A DNA stretch of 64,000 bases from Candidatus Sungiibacteriota bacterium (GCA_016180435.1 JACPBG010000003.1:13791-77790); one strand, 5' to 3'; positions 5,360 to 47,644 are shown, counted from the first letter of the stretch. Made by a program: numbers and translations. The notes: generated by a model not told the origin, from the letters alone.

Positions 5360-7276
5360 ATGTCAAAATTAGAGAATCTTGAAGAAGAACTTTATGGTAA
5401 AGAAGCCGAGGGAAAATTAGCCAAGCGCATGCGCCATAAAGAGGAACTTCCTTTGCCGCATCGCTCCGATCAGACCTCGTGGCAGGAATACGAATCGCCG
5501 CCTCCACCCCAAAATACAAAGCGGCCGCGATTTTTTATTTTTGACTATCGGGCTCTGATTTTGCTTCTGGGGGGATTGGTATTCCTGGCGGTTTTTGCCG
5601 GGGCTATTTTTGTGTATTTTTATTTTCAGACCCAGGGTAAGGAAGCGGAGATTGCAATTTTTTCGCGCGATACCGCAGAATCCGGGGAGAGGGTAACATT
5701 CTCGGTGGTGGTGAAGAATGTTTCGCGATATTCTCTTGAGGACGGGGAGGTGGTGCTAGTTCTTCCTTCCGGCTCGATTCTTATTGAAGAGGGCGAGGAG
5801 CGTTCTGCTCCGTCGCGGCTTGTCAAAAAAATATCTCCGGTCCAGCCGCGTGGCGAAGAAACAATTGAAGTTGCGGCGCGTATTTTTGGGTCGGAGTTTG
5901 AAGAGCGCAAGATTGACGCGTCTTTTCATTATCGGCCGGAGAATCTCCGCGCGCGATTTACCGCGCGCGCCTCCAAGGCGTTTACCATAAACCGTGTACC
6001 CATTGCAATTTCTTGGGAAGTTCCGGAATTGGTTACGCAGAATCAGGAAATGGAACTTCGGGTAGATTATATATCAAACGCGCGCGCGCCTTTTGATGAT
6101 TTATCGTTTCGTATCGAGTATCCGCCCGGGTTTAAATTTATTTCCGCCGATCCCAAGCCGGGTTCCGGAGAGACGATTTGGAGAATCGGCACCCTGGACC
6201 CCGGCGGCGGAGGGAGTATACGCATACGCGGGATTATAACCGGACAGGAAGGCGAGACCAAAGCATTCCGGGGGAGTATCGGATTATATAACTCGGCAAC
6301 CCGTGACTGGAAACCATATGTGGATGCCAGCCAGGATTTGAAGTTTTCAACCGATCCTTTATCGGTCAGGATTTCGCTCGGGCGCGATGTCGAAAATATA
6401 ATTGTACCCGGGGCTCATCCCACATTTTTCGTGTATTATCGGAACAATACGCCGGTTATTTTGCGGAATGTATCCATATTGGTATCTATTGAGGGGGGTA
6501 TAATTTTAAAAGATACGATTTTTGTCAGCCGCGGCGGAGTATTTGATGGAGCGAGGCAGGCAATCATTTGGGGGCCGGGGAATATTCCGGAGCTTCGCGA
6601 AGTTTCGCCGGGCAAAGAGGGAGAATTCTCTTTTTCCGTTCAGACGCGGGCACAGCCCGTGATGCGAAGCGCCACGGATAAGAATCTTTTGGTGAAAGTA
6701 AAGTCACTGGCGCGTCCCGGCGATATCCCGCCGGAACTTGCGGGAACCGATTTGGAGTCGGAACATTCGGTTGAATTTAAGGTATCGTCCAAAGTCATAT
6801 TTTCGGGGAAAAGCGTTTATCGCACCTCCCCTATTAAAAATTTAGGACCCCTGCCGCCTAAAGTCGGCGCAGAAACAACCTATGTAATCGTGTGGGAAGT
6901 TAAGAATTTCACTAATGATTTAAAAAATACCGAAATTAGAGCCACTCTTCCACCGAATATAAAATGGGGGGGAGCAGTTTTCCCGTCCGATGCCAAAATT
7001 ACGTTTAGTGAATCATCGTCCGAGGTGCGGTGGAATATAGAAAATGTTCCGGCCGGTACCGGTGTTATTTCAAAGTCAATGGTGGCCGCGTTTCAGGTCG
7101 TCGTAACGCCTTCGCAGATAGATGCGGGGCGGGCGATTCCTCTGGTTAATGAAGCGCGTTTGACGGCACTTGATAGTTTTACGGGAAGCGGGATGGATGA
7201 GAAAATTGATCCCTTGACTACGGAGACAAGGCAGGATACGTTGACGAATCCTAAAGAATGGCAGGTGGTTCGGTGA
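5360..7276 (+). CDS. Membrane-anchored protein with several Ig-like (DUF11-like) beta domains
   Basis: One N-terminal TM helix followed by repeated beta-rich modules (IWRIGTL, IIWGP, VRWNI). Confidence 0.7.
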   Translation: MSKLENLEEELYGKEAEGKLAKRMRHKEELPLPHRSDQTSWQEYESPPPPQNTKRPRFFIFDYRALILLLGGLVFLAVFAGAIFVYFYFQTQGKEAEIAIFSRDTAESGERVTFSVVVKNVSRYSLEDGEVVLVLPSGSILIEEGEERSAPSRLVKKISPVQPRGEETIEVAARIFGSEFEERKIDASFHYRPENLRARFTARASKAFTINRVPIAISWEVPELVTQNQEMELRVDYISNARAPFDDLSFRIEYPPGFKFISADPKPGSGETIWRIGTLDPGGGGSIRIRGIITGQEGETKAFRGSIGLYNSATRDWKPYVDASQDLKFSTDPLSVRISLGRDVENIIVPGAHPTFFVYYRNNTPVILRNVSILVSIEGGIILKDTIFVSRGGVFDGARQAIIWGPGNIPELREVSPGKEGEFSFSVQTRAQPVMRSATDKNLLVKVKSLARPGDIPPELAGTDLESEHSVEFKVSSKVIFSGKSVYRTSPIKNLGPLPPKVGAETTYVIVWEVKNFTNDLKNTEIRATLPPNIKWGGAVFPSDAKITFSESSSEVRWNIENVPAGTGVISKSMVAAFQVVVTPSQIDAGRAIPLVNEARLTALDSFTGSGMDEKIDPLTTETRQDTLTNPKEWQVVR

Positions 7277-7526
7277 TGCGGTCTTGCAATGTTATTTTGA
7301 AACACGGGCGGGCATCCAGCGATGCCCGCCCTAAGCATCCGGCGCGGCGCCGAGCGCTAAATTCTGAAATAGTATTCTTCGAGCTTGTCGAGAAGTCACC
7401 TTATTAAATGTATTTGTGTATTCGATTATTTAGCGCTCGGACCATGCCGCCGCGCCTTCTGATTGTTTTAAAATAACATTGCGATACCGCATCGTTCACT
7501 TTTAGAATTTTCTTGATGTAGCGCTA
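7275..7526 (+). repeat. Structured multibranch element, copy A
   Basis: Outer stem of about 30 bp (7275-7304 with 7464-7493), a CCAGCG-loop hairpin, TAAGCATCC, CCATGC and the tail ATTTTCTTGATGTAGCGC. Confidence 0.85.
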
Positions 7527-7664
7527 TGTGCCGTCGTCACAATAAATTTCTTTATATAAGCCATTTTTACGGCTTGATTTTTTATCTTTCCGATGTATAA
7601 TTAGAATATTATAGAGATTCGTGATTCGTAAATATTCGCCATAAATCCGTGAAAATTTGTTTCC

Positions 7665-9338
7665 ATGAATGACAAAGAGCAAAATCTAATGGAAAAAATT
7701 GTATCGCTTGCCAAAAGACGGGGGTTTGTGTTTCCGGGTTCGGAAATTTACGGAGGACTTGCCGGAACTTGGGACTATGGGCCTTTGGGCGTGCGTTTGA
7801 AAGAAAATATCAAGCATGAGTGGTGGCGGCACATGCTTCGTGAAGACCGCATTTATCCCTTGGATGCCGCGATTTTGATGAATTCGAAAACTTGGGAGGC
7901 ATCCGGGCACATTGAGCATTTTTCCGACCCCCTAGTTGAGTGTAATAATTGTAATTATAGAGATAGACCAGATCAGTTGGTTGAGAATGAACTTGATTTA
8001 GCAACAGTTAGAAAGGAATTTCTTGTTATTATAGATGATATTGCGGACAAAATAGATTCGGATACGAATAAAGCAAAAGATCTAATGAAATCTGCAAGAA
8101 TTATAATTCAGGACCGCCTAAAAGACAACTCGCTGTCTCCCGAGGAAATATCTGCACTTCAGTCAACAGTTGAAATGATACTTAATCAATCTGAGTATCT
8201 ATTGAAAAAAAGTGGATCTAGTTTGCAAGTTAAAAGCTTTATTATTAAGGAAGTTTCAAATTCTTTAAAATACCATGGAATAGTTTTGCGTAGATATCTT
8301 AATGCTTTTGTGAGGTGTCCAAATTGTGGAGCAAGAAAATGGGGTATACCAAAGCTATTTCAAATGATGTTCAAAACTCATGCCGGACCAGTTGAAAATG
8401 CGTCCACAGTTGTTTATTTGCGTCCGGAAACCGCGCAGGGAATATTCACAAATTTTAAAAATGTGGTGGATTCGTTTCGTCCGGTTTTGCCGTTTGGCAT
8501 TGCGCAAATTGGGAAGGCGTTCAGAAATGAAATCACTCCGCGTAATTTCCTGTTCCGCGCGCGGGAATTTGAACAAATGGAACTTGAATATTTTTGCCAT
8601 CCGGAAAAAGCGGATGAATACTTCACCGATATACGCAATATGCGGATGGAGTGGTTTTTGTCGCTCGGAATCCGGAAAGACAACATACGATTTCGTGATC
8701 ACGCGAAAGACGAACTCGCGCATTATTCCCGTGCTGCCACAGATATTGAATATCGGTTCGGCTTGAATGAGGGCGGATTTTCCGAATTGGAAGGGATTGC
8801 CAATCGCGGAGATTTTGACCTTTCCAACCACGCCAAGCATTCCGGCATTGATTTGAAACTGGAAGGCATAATGCCCCACGTCATCGAGCCGTCGCTTGGG
8901 CTTGACCGTGCGTTTTTGGCGTTTTTGATGGATGCATATTATGAGGAATCCGTTGGAAGTCCGACTTCCAGCGGGAAGTCGGACTTCCCCGGAAAGCGCG
9001 TGGTATTGAAACTTCATCCTCGCCTTGCTCCGCTGAAAGTCGCCGTATTCCCGCTTCTGGCGAACAAACCGCAATTAGTTGAAAAAGCTAGGAGTATTTA
9101 TGTGATGTTGCGGGAGGCCGGAAGCTGGGGGTTGGGGGCCGCGATAGCTTGGGATGATCGTGGAAACATCGGCAAGCGTTATTTCGCGCAGGATGAAATC
9201 GGCACGCCTTGGTGTGTTACCGTAGATTTTCAGACATTGGAAGATGATACCGTGACGGTGCGGGATAGAGATACGGCCAAGCAGGAAAGAATTTCAATCA
9301 GTGAATTGCAAAAATATTTCAGAGAAAAGTTAATTTAA
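7665..9338 (+). CDS. glyQS: Glycyl-tRNA synthetase (alpha2 type) with a ~110 aa insertion
   Basis: Motifs YGGLAGTWDYGPLG, YLRPETAQG, FRNEITP, EFEQME and IEPSLG, plus the anticodon-binding domain. Confidence 0.95.
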   Translation: MNDKEQNLMEKIVSLAKRRGFVFPGSEIYGGLAGTWDYGPLGVRLKENIKHEWWRHMLREDRIYPLDAAILMNSKTWEASGHIEHFSDPLVECNNCNYRDRPDQLVENELDLATVRKEFLVIIDDIADKIDSDTNKAKDLMKSARIIIQDRLKDNSLSPEEISALQSTVEMILNQSEYLLKKSGSSLQVKSFIIKEVSNSLKYHGIVLRRYLNAFVRCPNCGARKWGIPKLFQMMFKTHAGPVENASTVVYLRPETAQGIFTNFKNVVDSFRPVLPFGIAQIGKAFRNEITPRNFLFRAREFEQMELEYFCHPEKADEYFTDIRNMRMEWFLSLGIRKDNIRFRDHAKDELAHYSRAATDIEYRFGLNEGGFSELEGIANRGDFDLSNHAKHSGIDLKLEGIMPHVIEPSLGLDRAFLAFLMDAYYEESVGSPTSSGKSDFPGKRVVLKLHPRLAPLKVAVFPLLANKPQLVEKARSIYVMLREAGSWGLGAAIAWDDRGNIGKRYFAQDEIGTPWCVTVDFQTLEDDTVTVRDRDTAKQERISISELQKYFREKLI

Positions 9339-9417
9339 TCAACGAATAACGAATCCTGTACGAATATACGAATTGAATTTATAAATTCGTTACGAAATTC
9401 AATATTCGTTGATATCA

Positions 9418-10689
9418 ATGTTTAAAAAAATAACTCTTGACAATGGACTGCGCATAATTACCGCTCCCATGCAAGGTACTAACACCGTGACCACGTTGGT
9501 GCTTTGCGGCACGGGTTCGGATTATGAGTCGCAGGAAATAAGCGGGATTTCCCATTTTTTGGAGCACATGTTTTTCAAAGGCACTCAAAAACGTCCCCTT
9601 CCGACTGATATTACGCACGAGTTAGATAGCATGGGCTCGATTTCAAATGCTTTTACTTCGCACGAATTAACCGGATATTTCGTTAAAGCCGGGAAAGAAT
9701 ATTTAGATCGATCGTTTGATATTTTGTCGGATATTTATAAGAATTCGCTTTTGAACGAAGAGGAAATCGAAAGAGAAAAACAGGTGGTAGTTGAAGAAAT
9801 GCACAAAGACCGCGATAATCCCATGCTTTATATCTGGTGGGTGTGGGAGAAATTGCTTTACGGCGATCAACCGGCCGGTTGGGACGTGATTGGGACGGAA
9901 GAGGTTATAAGAAAATTAAAGCGCGAGGATTTTGTAAATTATTTTTTCCATCAGTATGTTGCATCCAATACGGCGATTGTGGTTGCGGGGAATTTTGAAG
10001 AAATATCCATGCAGAAGCGTATTGAAGAAATTTTTGGGGACATAAGGCATGATCCGCCGGTGCGCAAAAAAGCCGACTTTCGTGAGGGACAAAAAGATTC
10101 GGCGCTGGATATCCATTATAAAGAAACCGATCAGACTCATATTACTTTGGGGTTTCGGGGTTATGACGCCAATCATCCCCAGCGCTATGCCGCTGAATTG
10201 CTTGCCGCAATTCTGGGTGCGGGCATGTCCTCGCGCATGTTTACCGAAATTCGGGAACGATTAGGGTTGGCATATGCCGTATCTTCTGTTCATGAGTCAT
10301 ATTCAAACCGCGGTTATCTTGTGACTTACGCGGGTGTGGCGCACGAGAATGTGGAAAAAACAATTCGCGCAATTTTAGGAGAGTACGGGCGGCTTTGTGA
10401 AGAAAAAGTCAGCGATAAGGAGTTTAAAAAAGTTAAGGACTATATCCGTGGTACAACCCTGATCGCGCTTGAATCCTCTAACGCCGTGGCAAGTTTTGTG
10501 GGCGGAGAGGAGATGTTGACCGGCAAGCCCCTGACAATTGATGAAGTTTTTGCTAAGATAGACGCAGTAACACCCGATCAAATCTGCGCGATTGCCAAAG
10601 ACATCATGCGCCCGGAGAGGTTAAATCTTGCCATGATCGGGCCGTGGAGGGACAGCGCATCATTTATTAAGTTGCTTCGGGAATTTTAG
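9418..10689 (+). CDS. M16 family zinc peptidase
   Basis: Inverted zincin motif HFLEH, plus NAFTS and IRERLGLAY. Confidence 0.92.
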   Translation: MFKKITLDNGLRIITAPMQGTNTVTTLVLCGTGSDYESQEISGISHFLEHMFFKGTQKRPLPTDITHELDSMGSISNAFTSHELTGYFVKAGKEYLDRSFDILSDIYKNSLLNEEEIEREKQVVVEEMHKDRDNPMLYIWWVWEKLLYGDQPAGWDVIGTEEVIRKLKREDFVNYFFHQYVASNTAIVVAGNFEEISMQKRIEEIFGDIRHDPPVRKKADFREGQKDSALDIHYKETDQTHITLGFRGYDANHPQRYAAELLAAILGAGMSSRMFTEIRERLGLAYAVSSVHESYSNRGYLVTYAGVAHENVEKTIRAILGEYGRLCEEKVSDKEFKKVKDYIRGTTLIALESSNAVASFVGGEEMLTGKPLTIDEVFAKIDAVTPDQICAIAKDIMRPERLNLAMIGPWRDSASFIKLLREF

Positions 10690-10701
10690 TTTTTTAGGAA
10701 A

Positions 10702-11745
10702 ATGCCAAATAAAAATTTACAATCCATGCATATTTCTACCGGAACGATAATCCGCCTCTTTTTGATATTTTTTGGAATTATTTTAATTTATATCATCCGC
10801 GATATATTAACCTCGCTACTTTTTGCCGTGATTATCGCATCGGCCCTGGAGCCGTCAATTGAATGGTTGAAATCATACAAAGTTCCGCGCATTGCCGGAG
10901 TGGTGTTGATTTATGTTGCTATTGGCGCCATGCTTTTCTTTTCTCTTTATCTTGTTTTTCCGTTATTTTTTGATGAGTTCAAGGCGATTTCTTCGACATA
11001 TCCGTCTTTGCAAGACCGTTTGATTTCTGAACTTCAGCGCGTTGATATTTTGCCTTTTGGAGAATATTTACGCGGCAATGTAGAAGAGGTTATCCAAATA
11101 CCCGCGGGTTTTTTCGGGCAATTGAGCGGGGGCGTAATAAATTTCGCTTCAGCCGTATTTGGCGGGGTATTCTCTTTTTTTCTTATCATAATTTTTTCTT
11201 TTTATCTGGCGACGCAGGAAAAAGGAATTGAGAGTTTTTTGCGTCTGATCGCGCCGGTTGAATACGAGCCGTATTTAATAGATTTGTGGCATCGGTCGCA
11301 AAGAAAATTGGGGCGCTGGCTAAGGGCGCAGATGCTTCTGGGCGCGATTGTCGGTGTTTTAATATTTTTTGGGCTTACTATTCTGGGAGTCGAGCATGCC
11401 ATGTTTTTTGCGATGCTGGCAGCGCTATTTGAGGTTATTCCGGTGGTTGGGCCGATTTTGGCTGCGGTTCCTGCGGTTCTTGTATCGGTTTTTGTATCAC
11501 CCATGTTTGCGATATGGGTTGTTGTACTATACATCGCGGTTCAACAATTGGAGTCGCATGTGATTGTGCCTGTTGTTATGCGTACCACTATTGGTTTAAG
11601 TCCGTTGATCGTGGTGCTGGCTTTATTGATTGGCGCGAAATTGGGCGGGATTTTCGGGATTTTGCTTGCGGTGCCTTTGACCGCGATTGGGGCGGAGTTG
11701 ATTAATGATTGGGATAAAAAAAAGAGGGCGCTAATACCGGAGTAG
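10702..11745 (+). CDS. AI-2E family (PerM-like) transporter
   Basis: Multiple TM helices, IPVVGP and QQLESHVIVP motifs. Confidence 0.9.
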   Translation: MPNKNLQSMHISTGTIIRLFLIFFGIILIYIIRDILTSLLFAVIIASALEPSIEWLKSYKVPRIAGVVLIYVAIGAMLFFSLYLVFPLFFDEFKAISSTYPSLQDRLISELQRVDILPFGEYLRGNVEEVIQIPAGFFGQLSGGVINFASAVFGGVFSFFLIIIFSFYLATQEKGIESFLRLIAPVEYEPYLIDLWHRSQRKLGRWLRAQMLLGAIVGVLIFFGLTILGVEHAMFFAMLAALFEVIPVVGPILAAVPAVLVSVFVSPMFAIWVVVLYIAVQQLESHVIVPVVMRTTIGLSPLIVVLALLIGAKLGGIFGILLAVPLTAIGAELINDWDKKKRALIPE

Positions 11746-12028
11746 GGGCGGTATTCCTCGGTAATATGATTTTGAAACACATGCGGCCGTCCAGCGACGG
11801 CCGCATTAAGCATCCGGCGCGCGCCGAGCACTTAATTTATCAAAAATAGTTCCCGAGCTTGTCGAGGGACTACCTTTAGTGAAGTCAATACCGCAATCGT
11901 GGGTTGAGTGCTCGGACCATGCCGCGCGCCTTCTGATTGTTTCAAAATCACATCACCTCGACCGCCCCACTCTGATATTTTATTAAAAGAAGATTTGCTA
12001 AATGTAGCTCAACGGAAACGTTGAGCTA
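11745..12028 (+). repeat. Structured multibranch element, copy B
   Basis: Same junction motifs as copy A, with different but paired stems (ATGCGGCCGT-CCAGCG-ACGGCCGCAT). Confidence 0.85.
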
Positions 12029-12106
12029 TCGATTTTGTTTGACAATAGAATATGGGTAGTGTATCCTTATTTCAGAACTTTAGACATGAATTTATAGAGG
12101 CGAACA

Positions 12107-34109: not shown

Positions 34110-34206
34110 CCCCTCACGGGTCTTTTTTATATCCCGGGTTGGCATGTGGATTGCGGTATATTGTTGGACTTATAAGTTTGGAGTATCCTTTAAGTTACAT
34201 TCTTTT

Positions 34207-35083: not shown

Positions 35084-35147
35084 GATTGACATAAAAAAGC
35101 AAGCGTGTTACTAATGGATATAGATCTTTAATGTTGAGGATGAATCT

Positions 35148-35597: not shown

Positions 35598-35695
35598 ATA
35601 GGTTCGAGTCAGCATCTGCCGGCTTATTTTAATTGCCGGTTTTTGTTTGTTTACGCGGGGGTTGACTTTTATTTTAGGATTAGTATCATAGAATT

Positions 35696-36359: not shown

Positions 36360-36458
36360 AGGTTAAGAAAAATCAGTTCCGGCTTAGCCGGTTTTTTAAT
36401 TGCGTGCTTAATCGGTTCGTGGTATTCTCAAAGAAGCACTTTTCTACGGAGAAATGAG

Positions 36459-37064: not shown

Positions 37065-37107
37065 AACCCCGTCAAGGGGTTATTTTATTTAAACGCGCGG
37101 ATGTTTT

Positions 37108-37314
37108 ACCCCGTTAGAACGCCGTCGACTCCTGTCGGCGGTAATGGCAGAGATAAATGATGGAAGTGTAATGCTCCCATCTACGGGTCGCTCGCCCCGT
37201 TAGAGATGCGGCGCGACAAGACCCCGGCGGTACTAGTGAAAAATGTAATTTTTTTCTTAAATGGATTCAACTCTATAAATCTCTAACGGGGCGAAGCGCC
37301 CGTTCTAACGGGGT
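37108..37314. mobile_element. Nested MITE-like elements (outer 37108-37314, inner 37194-37292)
   Basis: ACCCCGTTAGAAC...GTTCTAACGGGGT encloses GCCCCGTTAGAGAT...ATCTCTAACGGGGC. GTTTTAC appears at both outer junctions. Confidence 0.8.
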
Positions 37315-37351
37315 TTTACAATAAACAATAGATGTTTTAGAATTTAAGAAT

Positions 37352-38722: not shown

Positions 38723-38783
38723 TCAGTATGTTACGTATAAACACATAAGTTCTTTATAGATTTTTTGCGTAGATGGTAGCAAT

Positions 38784-39071
38784 ATGAAGAAGCGGACATT
38801 CATGATGTTGGTTGCGATCTTTCTTCTTGTGCCGATTGGCAGTTTTGGGCAAAATAAGCCGGTTGATATCTGTATTTCAGTAATTGATATGCAGATCGTC
38901 CCGGTTGCACGAATTCCTTTCTTCGGTGGGCAAGTGCTTGTAGGAGGGCGTCGCTATCAATTGCCCGACGGCAGGATCATCGAAATTCCCATTCCAGTCT
39001 TTCCGGAACACATGAAAATCGGATCAGATGGATTGCCCCTTTATTGCGGGCCACACAAAGTAGTGAAATAA
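38784..39071 (+). CDS. Small secreted hypothetical protein (cargo 1 of the glyA array)
   Basis: Signal-peptide-like N-terminus, located between the repeated promoter and terminator. Confidence 0.55.
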   Translation: MKKRTFMMLVAIFLLVPIGSFGQNKPVDICISVIDMQIVPVARIPFFGGQVLVGGRRYQLPDGRIIEIPIPVFPEHMKIGSDGLPLYCGPHKVVK

Positions 39072-39135
39072 AGGAAGCCATTTGCGCTTCCTATTTTATT
39101 TGACCCATTTTGCGGCTAATGATATTATAAAAAAT

Positions 39136-39369
39136 ATGAATGTTATTACTATTCCAAAAGGAGAATTTGTGGTTATTCCGCGTAAGGACTACGAGGAACT
39201 TACTGAACTAAAAAAATGGATTCCAGTAGTTAAACCCACCCGGGGTGAGTTACGGGTTATACGGCGCGGTGAGCGGGAGATTGCACGTGGCGAGTACGTT
39301 TCGTGGTCAAAGGTAAAATATGAACTGGAACGCCGTCTTAACCGAAGTCGCAATAAAGCATCTGGATAA
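39136..39369 (+). CDS. Putative antitoxin
   Basis: VVIPRKDYEEL...EREIARGEYVSW. Overlaps a RelE gene. Confidence 0.75.
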   Translation: MNVITIPKGEFVVIPRKDYEELTELKKWIPVVKPTRGELRVIRRGEREIARGEYVSWSKVKYELERRLNRSRNKASG

Positions 39370-39577
39370 AATTCCGGCGCATGATGTCAAGGCAATTAAA
39401 ATAGTTATACAGCAGATGGAGGAGAATCCATATCTTGGTGATATTGTAAAGCTGGGGGGAGAAAATAATCGTTGGCGAAGACGCGCCGGAAATTATCGCC
39501 TTATGTATAACATTCTTTCCAAAGAAAGGATTATTTTTATTTATGATATTCGACGGCGTACCAGCAATACGTATTAA
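39320..39577 (+). CDS. RelE/ParE family toxin
   Basis: KL.G...WRRRAGNYRLMY...IRRR pattern. Confidence 0.88.
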   Translation: MNWNAVLTEVAIKHLDKIPAHDVKAIKIVIQQMEENPYLGDIVKLGGENNRWRRRAGNYRLMYNILSKERIIFIYDIRRRTSNTY

Positions 39578-39690
39578 AACGTTTCTTTTGACTGAAAAGA
39601 TTTGCCTCCAAATTTCCAGTTCCGGGGATTGACACGAAATAATCAGTATGTTACGTATAAACACATAAGTTCTTTGCATCGGAGGTAATT

Positions 39691-39948
39691 GTGGCTTCCC
39701 AAATACGCATTTTTTTGAAAAGTGCTTACTTTATTTTATGCGTTGATGCTATCGCACAAGGCGGGATTGTATCACTTCTGGTTTTTCGGGATCCCGCCCA
39801 ACTTTCGTATAGCCACGGCTGGGACGTATTTGCGCGGGCATTGTTTCTTTTAATGAGCATATGTTCGGCCGCGGGAGTGTCCATTTTGTGTTTTGCGTTC
39901 TTTTTCTCTTTTACATCGCTCTATAAAAGAGCATTTTTAATCAGTTAG
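39691..39948 (+). CDS. Small two-TM membrane protein (cargo 2 of the glyA array)
   Basis: GGAGGT RBS, GTG start and two hydrophobic segments. Confidence 0.55.
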   Translation: MASQIRIFLKSAYFILCVDAIAQGGIVSLLVFRDPAQLSYSHGWDVFARALFLLMSICSAAGVSILCFAFFFSFTSLYKRAFLIS

Positions 39949-40010
39949 GAAGCCATTTGCGCTTCCTATTTTATTTGACCCATTTTGCGGCTAATGATAT
40001 TATAAAAAAT

Positions 40011-40247
40011 ATGAATGTGGTTACTATTCCTCAAAAATTAGCGCAGAAAGGTGATTTGGTAGTAGTCCCTCGGCGGGAATATGAGGCGCTTTTACGCAGG
40101 CAGCCCAAACTTATTCCAGTCATAAAGTTGACCCCTCTTGAAATGCGGGCTATTGAAAAAAGCGAGAAAGAACTTGCACGCGGGGATTATGTAACTTTAG
40201 ATGAATTAGAACATGAGTTGGGAAGTGCGAATACCAAAAAACGTTAG
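40011..40247 (+). CDS. Putative antitoxin
   Basis: Paralog of 39136 (LVVVPRREYEAL...ELARGDYVTL). Confidence 0.75.
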   Translation: MNVVTIPQKLAQKGDLVVVPRREYEALLRRQPKLIPVIKLTPLEMRAIEKSEKELARGDYVTLDELEHELGSANTKKR

Positions 40248-40470
40248 GAAATGTATCAAGCGATTCCCCAAGGAAGATCGCGAACGCGTGATTGAAACGC
40301 TTCGCGATTTTGTTATTGATCCGTGGCGCGGGGATATCGCCAAAATTGGCGAAAAGGACAATTTATGGCGCCGACGGATCGGTAATTATCGCATTTCTTA
40401 CTCCATATTTATAAATTTGAACGTTGTTGAAATTAAAGACATTAAAAGGCGTACCAGCAATACGTATTAA
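40213..40470 (+). CDS. RelE/ParE family toxin
   Basis: WRRRIGNYRISY...RRTSNTY. Confidence 0.88.
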   Translation: MSWEVRIPKNVRKCIKRFPKEDRERVIETLRDFVIDPWRGDIAKIGEKDNLWRRRIGNYRISYSIFINLNVVEIKDIKRRTSNTY

Positions 40471-40609
40471 AACGTTTCTTTTGACTGAAAAGATTTGCCT
40501 CCAAATTTCCAGTTCCGGGAATCTGACCCGATTTTATTGACACCGGAACGGTTTAAATGCTATAAGTAGTTAAAGTTCTTTGCAATTTGTTTAGAGAAAG
40601 GAAAGAGTT

Positions 40610-41164
40610 ATGAATCATAAAAAAGGTCTTACTCTGATGGAGATGTTGATAGTTATGACTGTGATTGGGATTTTGGCAGCGATAATCGTGCCGAGATTGC
40701 AAGAACGTAATCCGTGGTCACCTCCGGAAGTATACGCTTTATTTAGCGGCGAGCACGAATTGCGGCGCATGGTTGAACGTGAGGGCGCTGCTGAAAGTCG
40801 TTTAAGCGGTAGCGGGTTTTTTGTTCTAGGAACCGGAGCGATAACGATTGAAGGTACAACCAAATCGGCAACCCATATCACGTTTGCGTGGAAACATCCA
40901 CATGGAAAGAAAACTTTTGTGATCAGCACCATGCCCATTGAAAAAATACAGCCGACGTTTGACGTTTCGGCAACCGTTCCGCGTATCCGGTTTCAACTGC
41001 ATCCGAATTGTGCAGGAGGTGTGGGAAATGTTCGTTGTCCGGAGTGGAAACTGAAAGAGTGGGGGCCGCAAGCGATGATTGATAGCGGGTACATCGTGTA
41101 TGCGACATTGTTTATAAGAGAAGAGGATTGGCCAACGAAAATTCAGTTGCCGCTTTCAAAATAG
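40610..41164 (+). CDS. Type IV pilin-like protein (cargo 3 of the glyA array)
   Basis: Prepilin motif KKG|LTLMEMLIVMTVIGILAAIIVP. Confidence 0.8.
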   Translation: MNHKKGLTLMEMLIVMTVIGILAAIIVPRLQERNPWSPPEVYALFSGEHELRRMVEREGAAESRLSGSGFFVLGTGAITIEGTTKSATHITFAWKHPHGKKTFVISTMPIEKIQPTFDVSATVPRIRFQLHPNCAGGVGNVRCPEWKLKEWGPQAMIDSGYIVYATLFIREEDWPTKIQLPLSK

Positions 41165-41249
41165 AATATAAAGGAAGCCCTCGCGCTTCCTATTTTATTT
41201 GATTTTATGCAAATTTTATGCTATTTAAAGGTAGTGTAATGTATCAGGC

Positions 41250-41532
41250 GTGAAGCGCTACACTAAGAAAATTTTAAGTGAGTCAAAACGGTTGAGGCGT
41301 TTTGTTTTCGAAGCGATGGGGGGCGTTAAATCATGTTTTCCGCCTTAGGCGGACACAATAAGAAAATATCTAAGCGGAGTCATGGGCGGTTGAGGATGTT
41401 TGATTTTAGACAATGGGAGGTCCGATTTGCTTGGTTCCGCCGAAGGCGGAAAATCGGACTGACCTTTAGTGAGGCGGCCGCTGGGAGCCGCCGAATCGTG
41501 TCTAAAATCAAATATCCGAAAACCGCCATACG
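41250..41532 (-). repeat. Structured element copy D plus one tandem half copy
   Basis: Full copy at about 41356-41532 shows the reverse-complement motifs GACAAT, GCTTGG, TGACCTTTA, CGCTGG and GTGTC. Half copy at about 41261-41353. Confidence 0.85.
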
Positions 41533-41541
41533 AAGCGATCT

Positions 41542-42399
41542 ATGATTTTACTTGACGGGAAAAAACTGGCGGAAAAAATTCTGGATGAGGTGAAAAAGGA
41601 TGTTGCGGGATTGGATGAAAAACCGCGTCTGGCTATTGTGCTGGTGGGCAAAAATACGGCCATTGAGAAATTTATTGAACAAAAAAAGAAGGCCGCGAAG
41701 TCGGTCGGTATTGACGTGTGCATATATCCGTTTGATCAGGCCATAAGTACGAACGAACTCCGTAAGCGTCTTTCCGAAATAGTGCATGAGAAAAAAAATA
41801 CCGGTGTGATTGTGCAGTTACCTTTGCCGGAACAAATTCATGTTCAGTATATTTTAAATGCCATTACGCCCGAAAAAGATGTGGATGTATTATCTTCCCG
41901 CGCGATTGGGAATTTTTCCACCGGACGAAGCAAAATCATGCCGCCGGTTGCAGGCGCCATAAAAGCACTGTTTGAGGAATACGGAATTGATTATAAAAAT
42001 AAGCATGTAGTAATTTTGGGCGCCGGAAATCTGGTTGGAAAGCCGACGGCATTATGGTTGCTCAATGAAAAGGCGACATTTAGCGTTATACGCAGTTCCA
42101 CTCGGCATCCGGAAGAATTTTTGCAGCAAGCCGATATAATAATATCCGGAATCGGTAAACCGGGATTTATCACGGGAAACATGATAAAGGACGGCGCGGT
42201 TTTAATAGATGCCGGAACTTCGGAATCCGAAGGCCCCTCGACCGGGCTCGGGGTAAAAAAATTAGTTGGTGACGTTGATTTTGAGTCAGTTGCCGCCAAA
42301 TGTTCATTTCTTACTCCGGTTCCGGGTGGCGTAGGTCCACTGACAGTTGCGCTACTTTTTAAAAATTTAGTTGCGATATCCCCCCATGAATATCCTTGA
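41542..42399 (+). CDS. folD: Methylenetetrahydrofolate dehydrogenase/cyclohydrolase
   Basis: VQLPLP, KDVD, VGKP, GDVDF and TPVPGGVGP motifs. Confidence 0.95.
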   Translation: MILLDGKKLAEKILDEVKKDVAGLDEKPRLAIVLVGKNTAIEKFIEQKKKAAKSVGIDVCIYPFDQAISTNELRKRLSEIVHEKKNTGVIVQLPLPEQIHVQYILNAITPEKDVDVLSSRAIGNFSTGRSKIMPPVAGAIKALFEEYGIDYKNKHVVILGAGNLVGKPTALWLLNEKATFSVIRSSTRHPEEFLQQADIIISGIGKPGFITGNMIKDGAVLIDAGTSESEGPSTGLGVKKLVGDVDFESVAAKCSFLTPVPGGVGPLTVALLFKNLVAISPHEYP

Positions 42400-42961
42400 T
42401 TTAGAACTATTTAGTATTTTAAACTCTTTAGCCGGAATTAATGAATTTTGGGATGGGATAATTATCTTTCTGGCAAGTTGGACTCTTTATTTTATGATAG
42501 CGGGCGTGGTTATTTTTCCAATTATTCCGTATATATCTTCAGGGTTTTACGGATTTTGGCGAAAGAATAAAGAATTTTTTTTGACAGCCCTGCTGTCGTC
42601 TTTTATCGCGCGGTTTTTATTGACGGAATTAATCCGGATTTTATATTATCGCCCCCGGCCATTTTCTATCGCGCCGGAAATTTTAGCCAAAAGCCAGGTC
42701 TATGTAATCCAGCTTCTGCCCCATGCCAGTAGTTCGTCTTTTCCTTCGGGGCATGCGGCATTTGCTTTTGCATTGGCTTTTGCGGTCTATTACTATTATC
42801 CGCGGCTGGGCGGAGTATTTTTTGCCGTAGCGATTTTAATGGGTGCGGCGCGGGTGGCAGCCGGAGTGCACTGGCCCCTGGATATTTTAGGCGGCGCGGT
42901 TGCGGGGATTGGATCGGCATGGCTACTGTGTGTTCTACGTGATTGGTATTTTAAAAAATAA
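42386..42961 (+). CDS. PAP2 family phosphatase (BcrC-like)
   Basis: RPRP, SFPSGH and ARVAAGVHWPLD motifs. Confidence 0.9.
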   Translation: MNILDLELFSILNSLAGINEFWDGIIIFLASWTLYFMIAGVVIFPIIPYISSGFYGFWRKNKEFFLTALLSSFIARFLLTELIRILYYRPRPFSIAPEILAKSQVYVIQLLPHASSSSFPSGHAAFAFALAFAVYYYYPRLGGVFFAVAILMGAARVAAGVHWPLDILGGAVAGIGSAWLLCVLRDWYFKK

Positions 42962-43297
42962 AGCCCCGTCGGGGCCTAACATATAAGTTTTCTAATTGTT
43001 CGGTGGTCAGCCTTCGGTTTTTCCGGGGGTTGTTTTATATGGAGTAAATCGCACATTTTGTAAAACATACATTGTTTCGGCGCGTTTGAAATGCATTTTT
43101 TTGCATGATCACAGGGCTTCTCCGCATAACGAAAATCAAAATCATGCGAGCTTCGGCTCATTATTTACTCATTTTTCGGGTACTTCTGCTGTTTTAGCAA
43201 ATTCTTGCGGGGAAAGCAATACTACACGCCGTTTGACAATGCAGGAAAGCGGTTTTACTATATATTCAGTACCTTTAATTCACGGAGATGTTTTTCC

Positions 43298-43855
43298 ATG
43301 AAATTATTTACCGAGTCAAAAATTCTTTGGGGGAGTTTTCTCAAATCCACCGTTCTTAAGGCGCTTGGCATAGTTCTCATGTCGCTGGGCATGCTTGCCT
43401 TATTTGGGGCGCTATTTTTATTCGCATCACGTTTATTTGCGGCTGAAATTTCACTTGTGCCCAAGTGTGTCCCATTTTCTATGTCAGAAGTTCCGGATGA
43501 GACCAGGCCGGAGTGGAAGTTTATGTATGAATGGAAAGTTGATGATGACCGCACAGGATTTATGTATGAAATTGATTCCGGATTTCATCTCGGCGTGTGG
43601 TATCATTTTGGGAAACTTGCACACAAGGCATGGGCTTGTGACGCGTCGGAGAATAACGGAAAACATCCGTTGGACAAAGCCGATCATATGATTTCAATCT
43701 TTCTGGAAGACGGAACATGGTCAATTCCGGTTTATGCCCAGCGGCCCGAGCGTATGAATTTATACGCAGGATCGGTTCTCTCCGGATATTTTTTATATCT
43801 CCGGGATAAAGATGGCAATATAGTCGCGTGGCGAACTATTGAACGCCCAAAGTAA
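43298..43855 (+). CDS. Hypothetical membrane-anchored protein
   Basis: Hydrophobic N-terminal segment, GGAG RBS and upstream TTGACA. Confidence 0.55.
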   Translation: MKLFTESKILWGSFLKSTVLKALGIVLMSLGMLALFGALFLFASRLFAAEISLVPKCVPFSMSEVPDETRPEWKFMYEWKVDDDRTGFMYEIDSGFHLGVWYHFGKLAHKAWACDASENNGKHPLDKADHMISIFLEDGTWSIPVYAQRPERMNLYAGSVLSGYFLYLRDKDGNIVAWRTIERPK

Positions 43856-43927
43856 AACCGTTCCTTTTGGAGCGGATTTTTATTGATTTTTTTGAATTTT
43901 ACATTACAATGGGAAAGTATAGAAGAC

Positions 43928-44010
43928 GGGCGAGTGGCGGAATGGTTTACGCGCACGACTCAAAATCGTGTGGTCGAAAGGCCGTGTGGGTTCGAATCCC
44001 ACCTCGCCCA
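43928..44010 (+). tRNA. tRNA-Leu(CAA), CCA not encoded
   Basis: Acceptor GGGCGAG/CTCGCCC, anticodon arm CACGA-CTCAAAA-TCGTG, long variable arm and GGTTCGAATCC T-loop. Confidence 0.95.
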
Positions 44011-44024
44011 ATTAGTATTTTTTT

Positions 44025-44801
44025 ATGGCCAGAATCATCACATTATGTAATCAAAAAGGCGGGGTGGGGAAATCAACATCGGCTCAAAACCTTTCGGTTT
44101 TTTTGGCGGCACTTGGAAAAAAAGTGCTATTGGTTGATTTTGATCCGCAAGCCAATACCACGTCTGGCCTTGGTTTTAACCCGCGCAAAATAGAAAAAAG
44201 CATTTATCATGCGCTTATCGGGAAAATTACCGCTAGCGACGCCGTAAAAAAAAGCGGGATTCTGGCTGTTGATATTTTGCCGGCATCTCCTGCGCTTGCC
44301 GGCGCGTCGGTGGAACTTGTTGACATGCGCAGCCGAGAGTATAAACTAAAAGAAATCCTTGAGCCGTTGCGCCGGAAATACGACTTTATTATAATTGATT
44401 CTCCGCCGAGTTTAGGGCTTCTTACCATAAACGCGCTTACCGCATCGCAAAAGGTGGTTATCCCGGTGCAGTGCGAATATTACGCCCTGGAGGGCCTTGC
44501 TGATCTGCTCCGTACTATACAGCTTGTTAATTCCAATTTGAAAACCCGTACCGCTATTTTAGGAGCGCTTCTCACCATGTATGACCGGAAATCGCGTTTG
44601 CATCGCGCAGTAGCCAAAGAAATCCGGCGTAAATTCCCGGGATACGTGTTTGAGGCCGTGATTCCGCGAAACATAAGTTTGGCCGAAGCCCCGTCATTTG
44701 GTAAAACAATTTTGCAATATGATCCGTATTCGCACGGAGCCAAAGCGTATAGGCAATTGGCGGAAGAGATATTGAGGTTGGAGGGAATAAGAAAAATATG
44801 A
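44025..44801 (+). CDS. parA: ParA/Soj ATPase
   Basis: NQKGGVGKS, DFDPQAN, DSPPSLG and LAEAPS motifs. Confidence 0.95.
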   Translation: MARIITLCNQKGGVGKSTSAQNLSVFLAALGKKVLLVDFDPQANTTSGLGFNPRKIEKSIYHALIGKITASDAVKKSGILAVDILPASPALAGASVELVDMRSREYKLKEILEPLRRKYDFIIIDSPPSLGLLTINALTASQKVVIPVQCEYYALEGLADLLRTIQLVNSNLKTRTAILGALLTMYDRKSRLHRAVAKEIRRKFPGYVFEAVIPRNISLAEAPSFGKTILQYDPYSHGAKAYRQLAEEILRLEGIRKI

Positions 44802-44993
44802 TGCCAATCTACAAATCTTATGCCAATTTGGCGAATTGCGAATCGTTACTATTTGAGCTTGCTTGCCTCGCTGTAGCGAGAGCGAAGCGGGTCGATAATA
44901 TACATTTAAGGCATCTTCTCGATTTCACTTAAAGAATAAGTATTTGCAATTTGTAGATTAGCATTAAATTCGCATCGGATTGGCATCACATTT

Positions 44994-46028
44994 ATGGAGT
45001 CATTAGGAAGAGGTCTTGAATCCTTAATTCCCGATAGGGGGCCGGAAGAAATTCCGGCGGATTTGGGCGCGGAAAATAGTGAGGATAAAATTACTCCGGA
45101 ATCCGAACACAATTTAACTGCCAGGGCGGGAACGCCCGCATCTCCTCTGGCATCGCTCGGCGCGTCACAGCGCGCTACTTTTCATGATAATTTCCAGCCC
45201 AAAAAAACCGATTCGGTTTTTTGGATTGAAATAGATAAGATTGAATCCAACCCTTATCAGCCGCGCCGCGAATTTAACGAGGGCGCGTTGAAGGATCTCG
45301 CCATGTCCATACGCGAGCATGGATTATTGCAGCCGATTTTGGTTTCCAAGCAAGAGATCGAGACCCAAACCGGACTGGATGTCAGGTATCAATTGATTGC
45401 TGGAGAAAGAAGGTGGCGCGCGGCGACGCTTGCCGGACTTTCGCAAATTCCGGCTGTGATCAGGCGCGGCGTGCCGGATAATCGCCTGAAATTGGAATTG
45501 GCTTTGATTGAAAATGTTCAGCGTGAGGACTTAAATCCCATGGAGCGCGCGCGGGCCTTCAAGCAATTAGTTGATGAGTTCCATCTGATGCAAAAAGAAA
45601 TTGCCGAGCGTATTGGCAAATCGCGCGAAACCGTGGCCAACACTTTAAGGCTTTTAACCCTTCCTGCAGACATCCAGCAAGGGTTGCATGAGGGGCGTAT
45701 TACCGAGGGACATGCGCGCGCGGTTTTAATTGCCGGGGATGATCAAACCAAACAATTTGAAGTATATAATGCGATCTTAATGGATCGTTTGAATGTGCGC
45801 GAGGCGGAAAATCGCGCACGGCATGTGTCCGGCAAAGCGTTTACCCCGCGCAAGCGCCCTTCGGCAGTGCAGGACCCGGAACTTCGCCGTTGGCAGAATG
45901 AATTGCAGGAGCGTTTGGGAACCAAAGTGCGTTTGGAAAAATTGGGCGACCGCGGAAAAATTATTGTTGAGTTCTATTCCGACGAAGAGCTTCAAGGGCT
46001 GTTGGGCAAATTAATACACGAAACATAA
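44994..46028 (+). CDS. parB: ParB/Spo0J
   Basis: LGRGL, NPYQPR, AGERRWRA, ENVQREDL and an HTH. Confidence 0.95.
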   Translation: MESLGRGLESLIPDRGPEEIPADLGAENSEDKITPESEHNLTARAGTPASPLASLGASQRATFHDNFQPKKTDSVFWIEIDKIESNPYQPRREFNEGALKDLAMSIREHGLLQPILVSKQEIETQTGLDVRYQLIAGERRWRAATLAGLSQIPAVIRRGVPDNRLKLELALIENVQREDLNPMERARAFKQLVDEFHLMQKEIAERIGKSRETVANTLRLLTLPADIQQGLHEGRITEGHARAVLIAGDDQTKQFEVYNAILMDRLNVREAENRARHVSGKAFTPRKRPSAVQDPELRRWQNELQERLGTKVRLEKLGDRGKIIVEFYSDEELQGLLGKLIHET

Positions 46029-46036
46029 ATTTGATG

Positions 46037-46129
46037 GCGGAATTTTATCCCCACACCAAATTTGGTGTGGGGGTTTGTTTGGATGAGGAACTTAGGGGAA
46101 TACTTGACAAATTGATCAGAGAGGTGTAG
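46037..46129 (+). pseudogene. parB 3'-end remnant 1, interrupted by a palindrome
   Basis: Reads AEFY[CCCCACACCAAATTTGGTGTGGGG]..DEELRGILDKLIREV*. Contains TTGACA-17-TAGATT. Confidence 0.8.
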
Positions 46130-46161
46130 ATTTATTGTGGTTCATTGCTGGGAGTTTATTT

Positions 46162-46458
46162 ATGCGAAACTTGTGGAAGTTATTGTTAGATCTTTTTGGT
46201 TTAACTAAAAATTATTATCCTTCTTTCAGTCCTGGTGAAACCTTGTTGGTAGAAGAAGGCGGACGGCTACTCTTTGGGGTAGTAGAACAGGTTACCGGTC
46301 GTCATGAGTTCGATAGGGTGTTGTTTAAGTATTCAACAACTTCAAGTTTTAGCGCCAATCTGCCTTTTTTTGTTACCATGGTTCGGCAAAAGGTTTCATT
46401 GGCGGATGTCTTGACTAAGGCCAATCAGCTCCCCAATCCGTATCTTAAAACAATTTAG
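46162..46458 (+). CDS. Hypothetical protein (cargo)
   Basis: GGGAG RBS and the terminator TCGGCTCTCGGGCCGA plus T-run. Confidence 0.55.
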   Translation: MRNLWKLLLDLFGLTKNYYPSFSPGETLLVEEGGRLLFGVVEQVTGRHEFDRVLFKYSTTSSFSANLPFFVTMVRQKVSLADVLTKANQLPNPYLKTI

Positions 46459-46529
46459 TCGTTGATCTAATCGGCTCTCGGGCCGATTTTTTTGTTTGAC
46501 ATTTTTGGCTGGTAAGTTATACTAAAATT

Positions 46530-46751
46530 ATGAAGCGGTTTACAACCCCTATCATTGATGTAAAAAAATATGGCGGAAAACAGGTGGCGATTGTGAAAGG
46601 AAAAATTGTGGCTTCCGGTATCACCACCCGGGAGGTGTTGGAGAATGCCAGAAAAAAACTTCCGCATGCGACTTGGCGCGATATTCTCTTGGTGAGCGTT
46701 CCTATAATTTTATCCCCACACCTTTCCAGAGTATTTCATAGGAAGGTGTGA
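46530..46751 (+). CDS. DUF5678-like protein with its 3' end disrupted by a palindromic element
   Basis: Paralog of 35696. No protease partner. Palindrome at 46714-46753. Confidence 0.6.
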   Translation: MKRFTTPIIDVKKYGGKQVAIVKGKIVASGITTREVLENARKKLPHATWRDILLVSVPIILSPHLSRVFHRKV

Positions 46752-46774
46752 GGATTTATTAATTTGGGTGTAAG

Positions 46775-46852
46775 CGCGGAAAAATCATGACTGAGTTTTA
46801 TTCGGATGAGGAACTAAGAGGCATACTTGACAAATTAATAAGGGAGGTGTAA
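46775..46852 (+). pseudogene. parB 3'-end remnant 2
   Basis: RGKIMTEFYSDEELRGILDKLIREV* versus ParB RGKIIVEFYSDEELQGLLGKLIHET*. Contains TTGACA-17-TAATCT. Confidence 0.85.
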
Positions 46853-46885
46853 TCTGTGTGTAGCTATTTGGAAAGGTGAATCGCA

Positions 46886-47248
46886 ATGGAAGAACAAATG
46901 TTGGTTGCTCCGACTTCGGAAGATTTAAGGTTATCCGACTTTATTAAGGGTGAGTTCGTGCGGTGGCATGAAAAAGGAGTAGAACATTTTGGGATAGTGG
47001 CCGAAATAAATTTAGGTGAATCTCAGGTTTTGGCGGTTCAAGGTGGGAATCCTTTCCCCACTTGTTTCTTTTATTTTGCGACGTCAGAACAGCGGGTTCG
47101 CAATAAGGAGGTAGACCTGCGAAAGACGACTTTGGGTGAGTTTCTGATAGATTCGAACACGATATCTAGGAATTACTCGGACTGTTCTAAAAAATATAAC
47201 GAAGTCGTCGATTCATTGGCAGTTCTTTTGCGTGCTGTAAATCATTAA
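46886..47248 (+). CDS. Hypothetical protein (cargo)
   Basis: GAAAGG RBS and the terminator TCGGTCCTCGGGCCGA plus T-run. Confidence 0.55.
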   Translation: MEEQMLVAPTSEDLRLSDFIKGEFVRWHEKGVEHFGIVAEINLGESQVLAVQGGNPFPTCFFYFATSEQRVRNKEVDLRKTTLGEFLIDSNTISRNYSDCSKKYNEVVDSLAVLLRAVNH

Positions 47249-47298
47249 CAGTTCGGTCCTCGGGCCGATTTTTTATAGTTTAAATAATAGCCAGGCTC

Positions 47299-47644
47299 AA
47301 AGCCCTACCTGTCGGTAGGTAGGGCTACCATAAGCAAACCTTTTAAGCGAGCGTTGCGGCCGAAGGTATTTTCTATTTTAGACAATGGGAGGATAAAATT
47401 GCTTGCCCCGCACCAAATTTTGACTGCCGCTTTCGTTTCCATCCAAGCAAATATGAACATCTGTTAAGAAATACAGAATATGTCCCGCCAGCTTATTCGA
47501 GGTGGCACGGAAACGGTCAAAATTTTGATGACGGGGCTTGGCTTGTGCGAAGCGCAAAAATTTGTCCGACCCTTAGCGAGGCCGCCGCAGGAGCGGCCGA
47601 GACGTGTCTAAAATAGGAAATACCCGAGAAGCCGCATCAGCGAG
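47299..47644 (-). repeat. Structured element copy E, containing a 131 bp secondary insertion
   Basis: Starts right after the relA/spoT stop and has the same motifs. CCCCGCACCAAATTTT...AAAATTTTGATGACGGGG is inserted at 47406-47536. Confidence 0.85.

Follow-up and report, generated by a model that had tools for sequence, protein, structure and literature searches.

A dispersed branched repeat at gene junctions of a Candidatus Sungiibacteriota genome and its candidacy as a non-autonomous mobile element

Several described bacterial repeats are short, non-coding and able to fold into hairpins. Among them, bcr1 of the Bacillus cereus group, about 155 bp long (Okstad, 2004; Klevan, 2007; Kristoffersen, 2011; all via PMC3184786), Correia elements and REPINs appear closest in kind to the element reported here, which is set apart by a conserved branched core and by the absence of any shown duplication. 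This element is a dispersed repeat of about 160 nt. It was analysed in a stretch of 64,000 nt (the window, positions being counted from its first letter) of Candidatus Sungiibacteriota bacterium (GCA_016180435.1, JACPBG010000003.1:13791-77790) and throughout the source genome (G000), a 1.05 Mb, 97.5% complete groundwater genome of the Sungbacteria/Parcubacteria in the Candidate Phyla Radiation (CPR).

As summarised in the review PMC3184786, bcr1 resembles our element by its size, its cruciform-like fold with two stem-loops within an outer pairing, its compensatory changes, its lack of coding capacity and a genomic distribution that is not conserved between related strains. However, bcr1 is presented there with 5-bp direct repeats and shown transcription, whereas no repeat of the 5-bp kind was shown here, and our element further differs by an invariant three-way-junction core, by tandem G·A loops, by its spread across a CPR class and by folding best on the strand mostly antisense to neighbouring genes. 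Similarly, the Correia elements (NEMIS) of Neisseria and ERIC of Enterobacteriaceae are, in the same review, intergenic units of 100-160 bp with long hairpin-forming terminal inverted repeats, often located just downstream of genes and present or absent between relatives, but they carry conserved terminal repeats and TA duplications (PMC3184786), whereas the arms are here copy-specific and the internal junction alone is conserved. As in miniature inverted-repeat transposable elements (MITEs), terminal inverted repeats bound a short non-coding unit, though with copy-specific arms; the two other MITE hallmarks, a target-site duplication and an autonomous relative with a transposase, were not found. 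REP sequences and REPINs recall the element in being structured, GC-rich hairpins that bear a short conserved motif at their foot, fold strand-specifically and are dispersed in intergenic DNA. On the contrary, the REP/REPIN-RAYT association has no counterpart here, as no Y1_Tnp gene was found in G000 and such genes do not track copy number and have no copies beside them in the loci examined, and the element is branched and five times as long as a REP. Like our element, the palindrome-associated elements (PATEs) derived from IS200/IS605 fold at their ends as single strands, code for nothing and show no obvious target duplication, but G000 has no TnpA or TnpB and, of 45 copies tallied by GC skew on contigs C1, C7 and C8, no more than 14 have their better-folding strand on the lagging-strand template. 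Finally, Rickettsia palindromic elements (RPEs) are likewise palindromic repeats that crowd gene ends in a reduced genome, but they typically stand in frame inside genes, whereas none of 57 copies lies here inside an open frame of at least 200 codons. Full-text literature searches returned no description of such repeats in CPR.

A branched fold and its distribution

The element forms a three-way junction between an outer helix and two inner hairpins, P1a and P2/P3. The long outer stem leads through ACACR to hairpin P1a, with loop (T)CCWGCG, and to the linker CTCRCTAAGGGTC (TAAGCATC in copies A and B); the P2 hairpin follows, with a variable tip P3 and a conserved 3'-side bulge (A)CCAWGCA, then CCTCCCATTGT, after which the outer stem returns. 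Each of the five window copies, A to E, then carries a "tail" and a hairpin. A preliminary description of the window had proposed this layout (outer stem, ACACR, CCWGCG hairpin, TAAGSRTC linker, P2, variable P3, CCAWGC, P2', ATKGT) and placed the five copies correctly; they are the only full copies in the window, which also holds two truncated pieces (Table 1).

A covariance model built from 20 short copies returned 59 matches at 57 loci in G000, two of the matches being reverse-strand echoes, and a regular-expression search gave 32 copies. RNAalifold predicted 37 pairs from the 20 copies, 27 of them with double changes. Covariation was then measured on 64 distinct copies from several genera, against 500 shuffles and against controls in which partners were slid by 1-3 columns. 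Paired cells amounted to 93.9%, compared with 63.3% in shuffles, none of which reached the observed value, and 34 of the 37 pairs vary on both sides. The covariation score was 0.756, against 0.188 for shuffles and 0.083-0.106 for slid partners; fitting the alignment to the model biases it towards the structure, but the slid controls carry the same bias and the gap is still large. The outer stem, whose arm sequence is copy-specific and not conserved, is paired at 93.6% over its 18 modelled pairs. A mutual-information search for pseudoknots only corrected one pair, column 98 pairing with column 136 (C-G 33, T-A 27) and not with column 230. The original observation that stems differ between copies yet still pair is therefore borne out by strong covariation, the junction, loop and bulge being nearly invariant across genera, and both the covariation and the further copies on which the family had been staked are present.

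Outside the source genome, the model matched 29 of 41 relatives, including 20 of 24 from the same taxonomic family, with 0 to about 50 matches per genome; several of the 41 hold exactly one match and many genomes of the family none or one. In a class-wide sample of 121 genomes (E up to 1e-6, stricter filters, 24 candidates scored per genome), matches fell in 16 genomes from at least 14 taxonomic families, again with patchy copy numbers. Public collections were scanned with one exact core pattern only. Among 185,579 species genomes this pattern occurred at 97 loci, and the model was run on the 37 Parcubacteria-type loci, where its matches fall; the remaining ones (Pseudomonas, Streptomyces, etc.) were set aside as chance from their differing match lengths alone, without a model run. 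Eight loci found with the pattern in IMG/VR were likewise attributed to chance, none being matched by the model.

The family had not been recognised in the preliminary description, and Rfam 15 gave it no name either. At gathering score, the whole window yielded nothing except a tRNA, its sole Rfam match (43928-44010, +; tRNA-Leu CAA according to ARAGORN). Permissive scans (E up to 10) of 7200-12100 and 41250-41600 on either strand returned 13-18-bit noise only, and no family matched, including hammerhead, twister, twister-sister, hatchet, pistol and HEARO.

The strand that folds better

The orientation in which the element was first read is called hereafter the described strand, and the opposite one the complementary strand. 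Structured RNAs are expected to show common G·U pairs, far above A·C, and the described strand does not, with 33 G·T and 60 A·C among 2362 cells, the mis-assigned pair being left out. This makes 1.4% of G·T, compared with 50 G·U in the 787 pairs (6.4%) of the 35 tRNAs of G000, whose brackets may list allowed pairs only. An A·C on one strand is a G·T on its complement, and the complementary strand accordingly carries 60 wobble-type cells instead of 33, that is 2.5%. The asymmetry is pronounced in the outer stem, with 60 A·C or C·A against 20 G·T or T·G in 85 distinct copies; in the same copies, the GGG:CCC helix gives 10 A·C and 11 G·T and P2 gives 7 and 4. The G-T pairs checked in the preliminary description all fell on the genomic + strand, a pattern that fails genome-wide: outer stems show 13 G·T and 22 A·C in + copies, 2 and 16 in - copies. 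Replication is known to bias the leading strand from C to T, and such a bias would push in the opposite way because the described strand is the G-rich one in 31 of 45 copies.

The second indication comes from CTCG boxes, which flank the stem in 36 of the 64 copies. The 5' box YTCG faces the 3' box CTCR as C-G, T·C, C·T and G-C, and the outer pair of the boxes covaries (C-G 35, T-A 21 of 61 cells), a 5' TTCG going with a 3' CTCA. The same motif closes P1a (C..G 32, T..A 13, one discordant), and about nine of the 64 copies have Watson-Crick pairs in place of the loop, as does copy C of the window for its internal loops. On the described strand, the motif is a destabilising pyrimidine-pyrimidine loop; its complement reads 5'-YGAG/5'-CGAR, a tandem G·A mismatch in pyrimidine-GA-purine context. 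This context gives stable sheared pairs in RNA and in DNA. Since their outer bases covary, the CTCG boxes are structural internal loops. They had also been considered as a target-site duplication left by insertion into a hairpin loop; this idea was dropped because of that covariation and because G000 contains no landing-pad unit free of an interruption. A resemblance to the hammerhead ribozyme (tandem G·A beside a helix, three-way junction) was dismissed as well, the flanking core being UUAGYGA and not CUGANGA and Rfam being silent.

Predicted stability agrees with these features. Under RNA parameters, ViennaRNA gives the complementary strand the lower folding energy in 89 of 101 copies (mean difference -5.9 kcal/mol); under DNA parameters it does so in 85 of the 101 (-2.1). 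Internal loops, outer-stem wobble-type mismatches and predicted stability together indicate that the selected form is one strand, be it as DNA or as RNA, and that this strand is the complement of the described one. The strand assumed at first has to be given up on these grounds, and the proposal of an RNA in the 3' untranslated region is weakened both by the scarcity of G·U-type pairs relative to tRNAs and by the mixed orientation of the copies (28:15, see below). In copies A, B, C and E, this complementary strand runs antisense to the gene upstream, and in D it is directed towards folD.

Gene junctions, turnover and competing explanations

Crude open reading frame calls place all 57 copies between genes: 28 are sense and 15 antisense between same-direction genes, 10 lie between convergent and 4 between divergent genes. 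The regular feature is that the 5' edge of the described strand lies within a few bases of a gene boundary, which is a stop codon for sense copies and a start codon for antisense copies such as D. In the window, A, B, C and E start 0-3 nt past the stops of a DUF11, an AI-2E transporter, a dCTP-deaminase-like and a RelA/SpoT gene, as first noticed, but a sense position after a stop codon is genome-wide a trend between same-direction genes and not a rule.

Turnover was followed with a same-genus genome (G001), whose gene DNA is about 77% identical to that of G000. Thirty G001 copies were considered, 19 of which have both flanks side by side in G000. Ten of these sites are filled in both genomes and nine are without a model match in G000, where the gaps measure 32-188 nt; for instance, G000 has a mere 32-nt spacer where G001 carries a copy that, with its tail and tail hairpin, measures about 215 nt. 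Conversely, the G000 copy at C7:327421-327582 faces a 29-nt gap in G001, so that empty sites in relatives exist in both directions. Six of the nine sites without a copy were inspected: a different palindromic repeat, built of words, occupies three of them, and the rest have a spacer that is short or unrelated. Filled sites are themselves changing. Five of eight same-site pairs are 80-87% identical, with the P3 hairpin swapped wholesale and in one case P2 too, and the other three are 28-57% identical and represent a different copy at the same junction. At four pairs of G000/G001 loci (L006/L052, L012/L048, L013/L022 and L195/L040), an unrelated GC-rich hairpin replaces P3, the tip being hypervariable. 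Three unlike copies occupy the junction after the DUF11 gene in G000, G001 and G005, and the junction before folD is without a copy in G006, G008 and G022, whereas those of G000 and G005 carry copies that point in opposite directions.

The fold is kept while the stems change. Over 185 modelled pairs in the five orthologous pairs, 167 are unchanged, 7 show double compensated changes, 10 single changes and 1 a double uncompensated change, and the number of compensated doubles greatly exceeds what is expected by chance at such divergence. About four of them probably belong to one P2 stem exchanged as a block, so that part of the covariation reflects module shuffling.

Contigs from four DNA runs, compared with positions 30001-50000 of the window, contained no clean excision form; they break at D and E, where joints connect different repeat copies. 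A search for RNA runs containing positions 40000-48000 of the window gave none. Two other stretches, 44843-44940 and 37131-37297, are occupied by other high-copy repeats, and summed contig depth reaches 176-413 around 44.7-45.3 kb, compared with about 10-20 elsewhere. Different repeat families share junctions at these two stretches, because many joints replace them with other sequence.

On balance, our confidence is evenly divided on whether this dispersed non-coding repeat is a non-autonomous mobile element whose active form is one folded strand, the complement of the described one. An enzyme supplied in trans would bind this folded strand at its invariant loop, bulge and junction and would then move or copy the unit; the similarity of the motifs CCWGC and CCAAGC suggests a two-site or dimeric binder. 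The stems may be shuffled by recombination at the conserved junctions of different copies, and revision of the palindrome tip may make P3 hypervariable. The mobile branch of the preliminary description holds as far as presence and absence between species, copy numbers, nesting and truncation are concerned, but no mobiliser was found.

Several observations weigh against such an element, beginning with the search for its enzyme. G000 gave no match to Y1_Tnp (PF01797), TnpB-type proteins, DDE_Tnp_1 or rve, Y1_Tnp and PDDEXK_3 counts do not track element counts in the 41 genomes, and nine loci around Y1-like genes contain no model match. At the sites themselves, edges are sharp and no target duplication is visible at the one clean empty site, nor was a target-site duplication shown for the element elsewhere. 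The family is old with little recent activity in G000, because a single pair exceeds 92% identity (95.4% over 151 nt, at unrelated loci; the next reaches 91%) and the median is 77% over 169 aligned pairs. The copies are kin, so that counts overstate their independence, and same-site copies kept paired also fit host function or gene conversion. As to the strand, P1a gives 4 A·C against 9 G·T in the 85 copies, leaving the signal to the outer stem and the loops, and the placement relative to the lagging-strand template is the opposite of that of IS200/IS605.

The enzyme search was extended in several ways. A tblastn search of G000 for Y1-like genes with the proteins of five relatives gave nothing. 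This genome holds one Xer-like tyrosine recombinase, three GIY-YIG hits, one of which lies in a 487-residue open frame that we take from its size to be UvrC, five PDDEXK_3 genes and one reverse transcriptase. The latter (556 aa; C8:158120-161581, L182) belongs to a type I restriction-modification operon, in which it separates the methylase gene from the specificity gene, and looks like a defence-associated reverse transcriptase by analogy. Y1_Tnp is found in 33 of the 41 relatives, four of them without the element, and is missing from three genomes with 12-57 copies, while among the four genomes richest in the element PDDEXK_3 counts are 5 in G000, 0 in G001, 0 in G005 and 5 in G022. Copies next to HUH, reverse transcriptase or nuclease genes, which the preliminary description had thought worth seeking, were not encountered in the loci examined; Y1_Tnp, PDDEXK_3, TnpB, DDE, rve, reverse transcriptase, tyrosine recombinase and GIY-YIG proteins were all discarded as mobilisers, none being adjacent in the loci checked, with two small GIY-YIG surroundings outside this set. 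No transposase-like family stood out among the multi-copy protein families of G000, compared without Pfam annotation, and no copy carries a gene that would make it an autonomous partner, the largest inner inserts measuring 216 nt. A Y1 gene of about 221 aa, of IS200/RAYT-like type, is present in G001 at C14:8300-10300 (L177), and the syntenic position of G000, C4:113899-114838, has a 130-nt gap instead.

Among the other explanations, a cis element useful to the host in its transcripts, whose hairpins would stabilise, process, terminate or insulate 3' ends at junctions in either orientation, and which spread passively or long ago before being retained by host selection, seems unlikely. It would account for copies that fill gene junctions flush with stop or start codons, for the sites kept in both species with compensated stems and for 94% pairing in spite of about 77% identity, and MITE-like repeats that are co-transcribed and affect mRNA stability are described in the review PMC3184786. 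However, G·U-type pairs are 4-5 times rarer than in the tRNAs of G000 and are outnumbered by A·C, 28 of the 43 copies between same-direction genes have their better-folding strand antisense to those genes, and the P3 and tail hairpin loops inspected are not enriched in stable RNA tetraloops. Moreover, one scanned tail of three, that of C and not those of D and E, resembles a terminator, many genomes of the family do with one copy or none, and an unlike palindromic repeat stands at half of the inspected sites without a copy. Another explanation is that the complementary strand encodes a small RNA or a self-cleaving ribozyme, with a catalytic or protein-binding core and a promoter in the tail (hairpin-TACAAT-AAGAAAA). 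Unpaired residues that stay invariant beside covarying helices in many families of the class, tandem G·A adjoining helices, better folding of the complement, clearest with RNA parameters, and a TACAAT-like box upstream on the complement of tailed copies would all fit. We nevertheless find such an RNA improbable, as Rfam was silent on both strands with E up to 10, wobble-type pairs remain well below those of tRNAs even on that strand, the loose tail pattern follows a minority of the copies and two G005 copies have no tail, and no -35 element is evident. In addition, a sub-lineage with P1a arms that cannot pair persists in both species, and a gene family would not be expected to show 57 dispersed copies, some nested and some halved.

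The scarcity of wobble pairs and the near-perfect arms would also fit a view in which no dedicated mobility exists and host replication and recombination, through template switching, quasi-palindrome correction or gene conversion among copies, make and homogenise the palindromes, the repeat being either a DNA structure that perpetuates itself or a site bound by a host DNA protein. The wholesale exchange of P3 and P2 modules between orthologous copies, the lack of any transposase of the searched families in a nearly complete genome and the 31:14 bias of orientation relative to GC skew are in line with this proposal. It seems rather unlikely to us all the same, as whole units are present or absent with sharp edges, the 95%-identical pair sits at unrelated loci, the same core recurs patchily in at least 14 taxonomic families, and correction leaves the invariant loops and junctions and the strand asymmetry unexplained. 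A further suggestion, which we regard as a long shot, is that the invariant three-way junction and the two tandem G·A loops are the core of an undescribed selfish nucleic acid of CPR, devoid of protein genes and spreading via a folded single strand by its own catalysis or with a borrowed housekeeping enzyme.

Features of the copies and significance of the family

The window copies, their neighbours and related features are listed in Table 1. The inserts at P3 of A, B and E are nested extra modules, which corrects the earlier account of them; those of A and B are palindromic and distinct from that of E, named M2. M2 is a second, independent repeat of about 150 nt with inverted ends CCCCGTCAYCAAAATTTTGAC / GTCAAAATTTGGTGCGGGG and 12 copies in G000. 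Six of the 12 sit inside the element, inserted at its CCAAGC bulge; CAAGC borders them on either side and resembles a target duplication of 5 bp made by M2. P3 is in this sense a landing site.

The tail, CTCRCTTA..TTTTCTTAWTGTA followed by a GC-rich hairpin, is present in some copies, the loose pattern being found after 22 of 57. It was rejected as an independent motif (619 hits with the loose pattern, 14 with the strict one) and as a general terminator, the only terminator-like tail among C, D and E in the scan of 34000-48500 being that of C. Half-elements consist of the tail motif, a GC hairpin, ACCAWGCA, P2', TCCCATTGYCT and the 3' outer arm, without a 5' half, and they trail a full copy or form tandem arrays. 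Read against this order, tails are the start of half-elements (tail, hairpin, bulge, P2', TCCCATTGT, 3' arm). No single insertion rule covering the tails could be derived, the uninterrupted landing-pad unit being absent from G000. In a sub-lineage kept in both species, the P1a arms are repeated CTCG units, CTCGCTCGCT-CCTGCG-GCTCGCTCGC, which cannot pair. The end of D lies 14 nt from the start codon of folD, identified by Pfam, and faces away from it.

Table 1. Coordinates of element copies, neighbouring gene boundaries and associated modules (window positions unless a genome or contig is named)
Feature	Position	Strand	Details
Copy A, stem to stem	7278-7490	+	TAAGCATC subtype; model match 7268-7500, 64.9 bits
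Copy A, P3 position	7340-7455	+	nested palindromic module of ~100 nt
Stop codon, DUF11 gene upstream of A	7274-7276		
Tail of A	7491-7532	+	TCACTTTTAGAATTTTCTTGATGTA and short GC hairpin
Copy B, stem to stem	11746-11968	+	subtype as A; nested module in P3; model match 11742-11975, 60.9 bits
Stop codon, AI-2E transporter gene upstream of B	11743-11745		
Tail and final hairpin of B	11969-12026	+	
Half-element tandem array	21780-22000	-	
Copy C, stem to stem	34884-35030	+	model match 34875-35040, 99.5 bits
TAG stop, dCTP-deaminase-like gene	34882-34884		overlaps first base of copy C
Tail of C	35031-35078	+	hairpin 35061-35078, then T run
Remnant past tail of D	41236-41320 (approximate)	-	second 3' outer arm and second tail, ..aaaacaaaacgcctcaaccg..CTCACTTAAAATTTTCTTAGTGTAGCGCTTCACGCC
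Tail and hairpin of D	41339-41384	-	GACTCCGCTTAGATATTTTCTTATTGTG and TCCGCCTAAGGCGGA
Copy D, stem to stem	41385-41527	-	cleanest short-P3 copy; model match 41376-41535, 131.2 bits
Copy D, arms	5' arm 41502-41527; 3' arm 41385-41409	-	
Copy D, P1a	41461-41501	-	ACACG..TAAAGGTC; loop CCAGCG 41479-41484
Copy D, P2/P3 hairpin with CCAAGC bulge	41421-41460	-	CCTCCCATTGT at 41410-41420
folD start	41542	+	neighbour of copy D
Tail and long final hairpin of E	47302-47355	-	
Copy E	47356-47644	-	CTCGCT box 47639-47644; outer stem from 47635; 3' arm 47356-47381
Copy E, model match	47503-47633		C1:61293-61423
Copy E, P2/P3 region	47393-47567	-	holds module M2
RelA/SpoT stop codon	47645-47647		adjoins copy E
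M2 sites	47393-47567	-	also G000 C1:81224, C7:155371, C7:180077, C7:322163, C7:364750, C8:140547
Sub-lineage sites	G000 C7:327421-327582, C7:330221-330382, C11:48914-49078, C7:353544-353864; G001 L048		

CPR/Parcubacteria genomes are among the smallest and most compact, yet about 1% of the DNA of G000 is spent on this one repeat family. In practice, such repeats explain assembly breaks at these sites in these genomes, and the covariance model together with the strand assignment provides a testable object, that is a strand to transcribe, to fold or to use as bait. If a selfish nucleic-acid core were true, it would explain dozens of junction copies in reduced genomes without transposase, throughout the class. 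If the repeat is kept by the host, it would be a widespread signal at gene junctions in organisms for which little work exists on transcription or RNA decay. If it is mobile, it moves without a recognisable transposase, which would point to an undescribed enzyme or mechanism that works on single strands in folded form.

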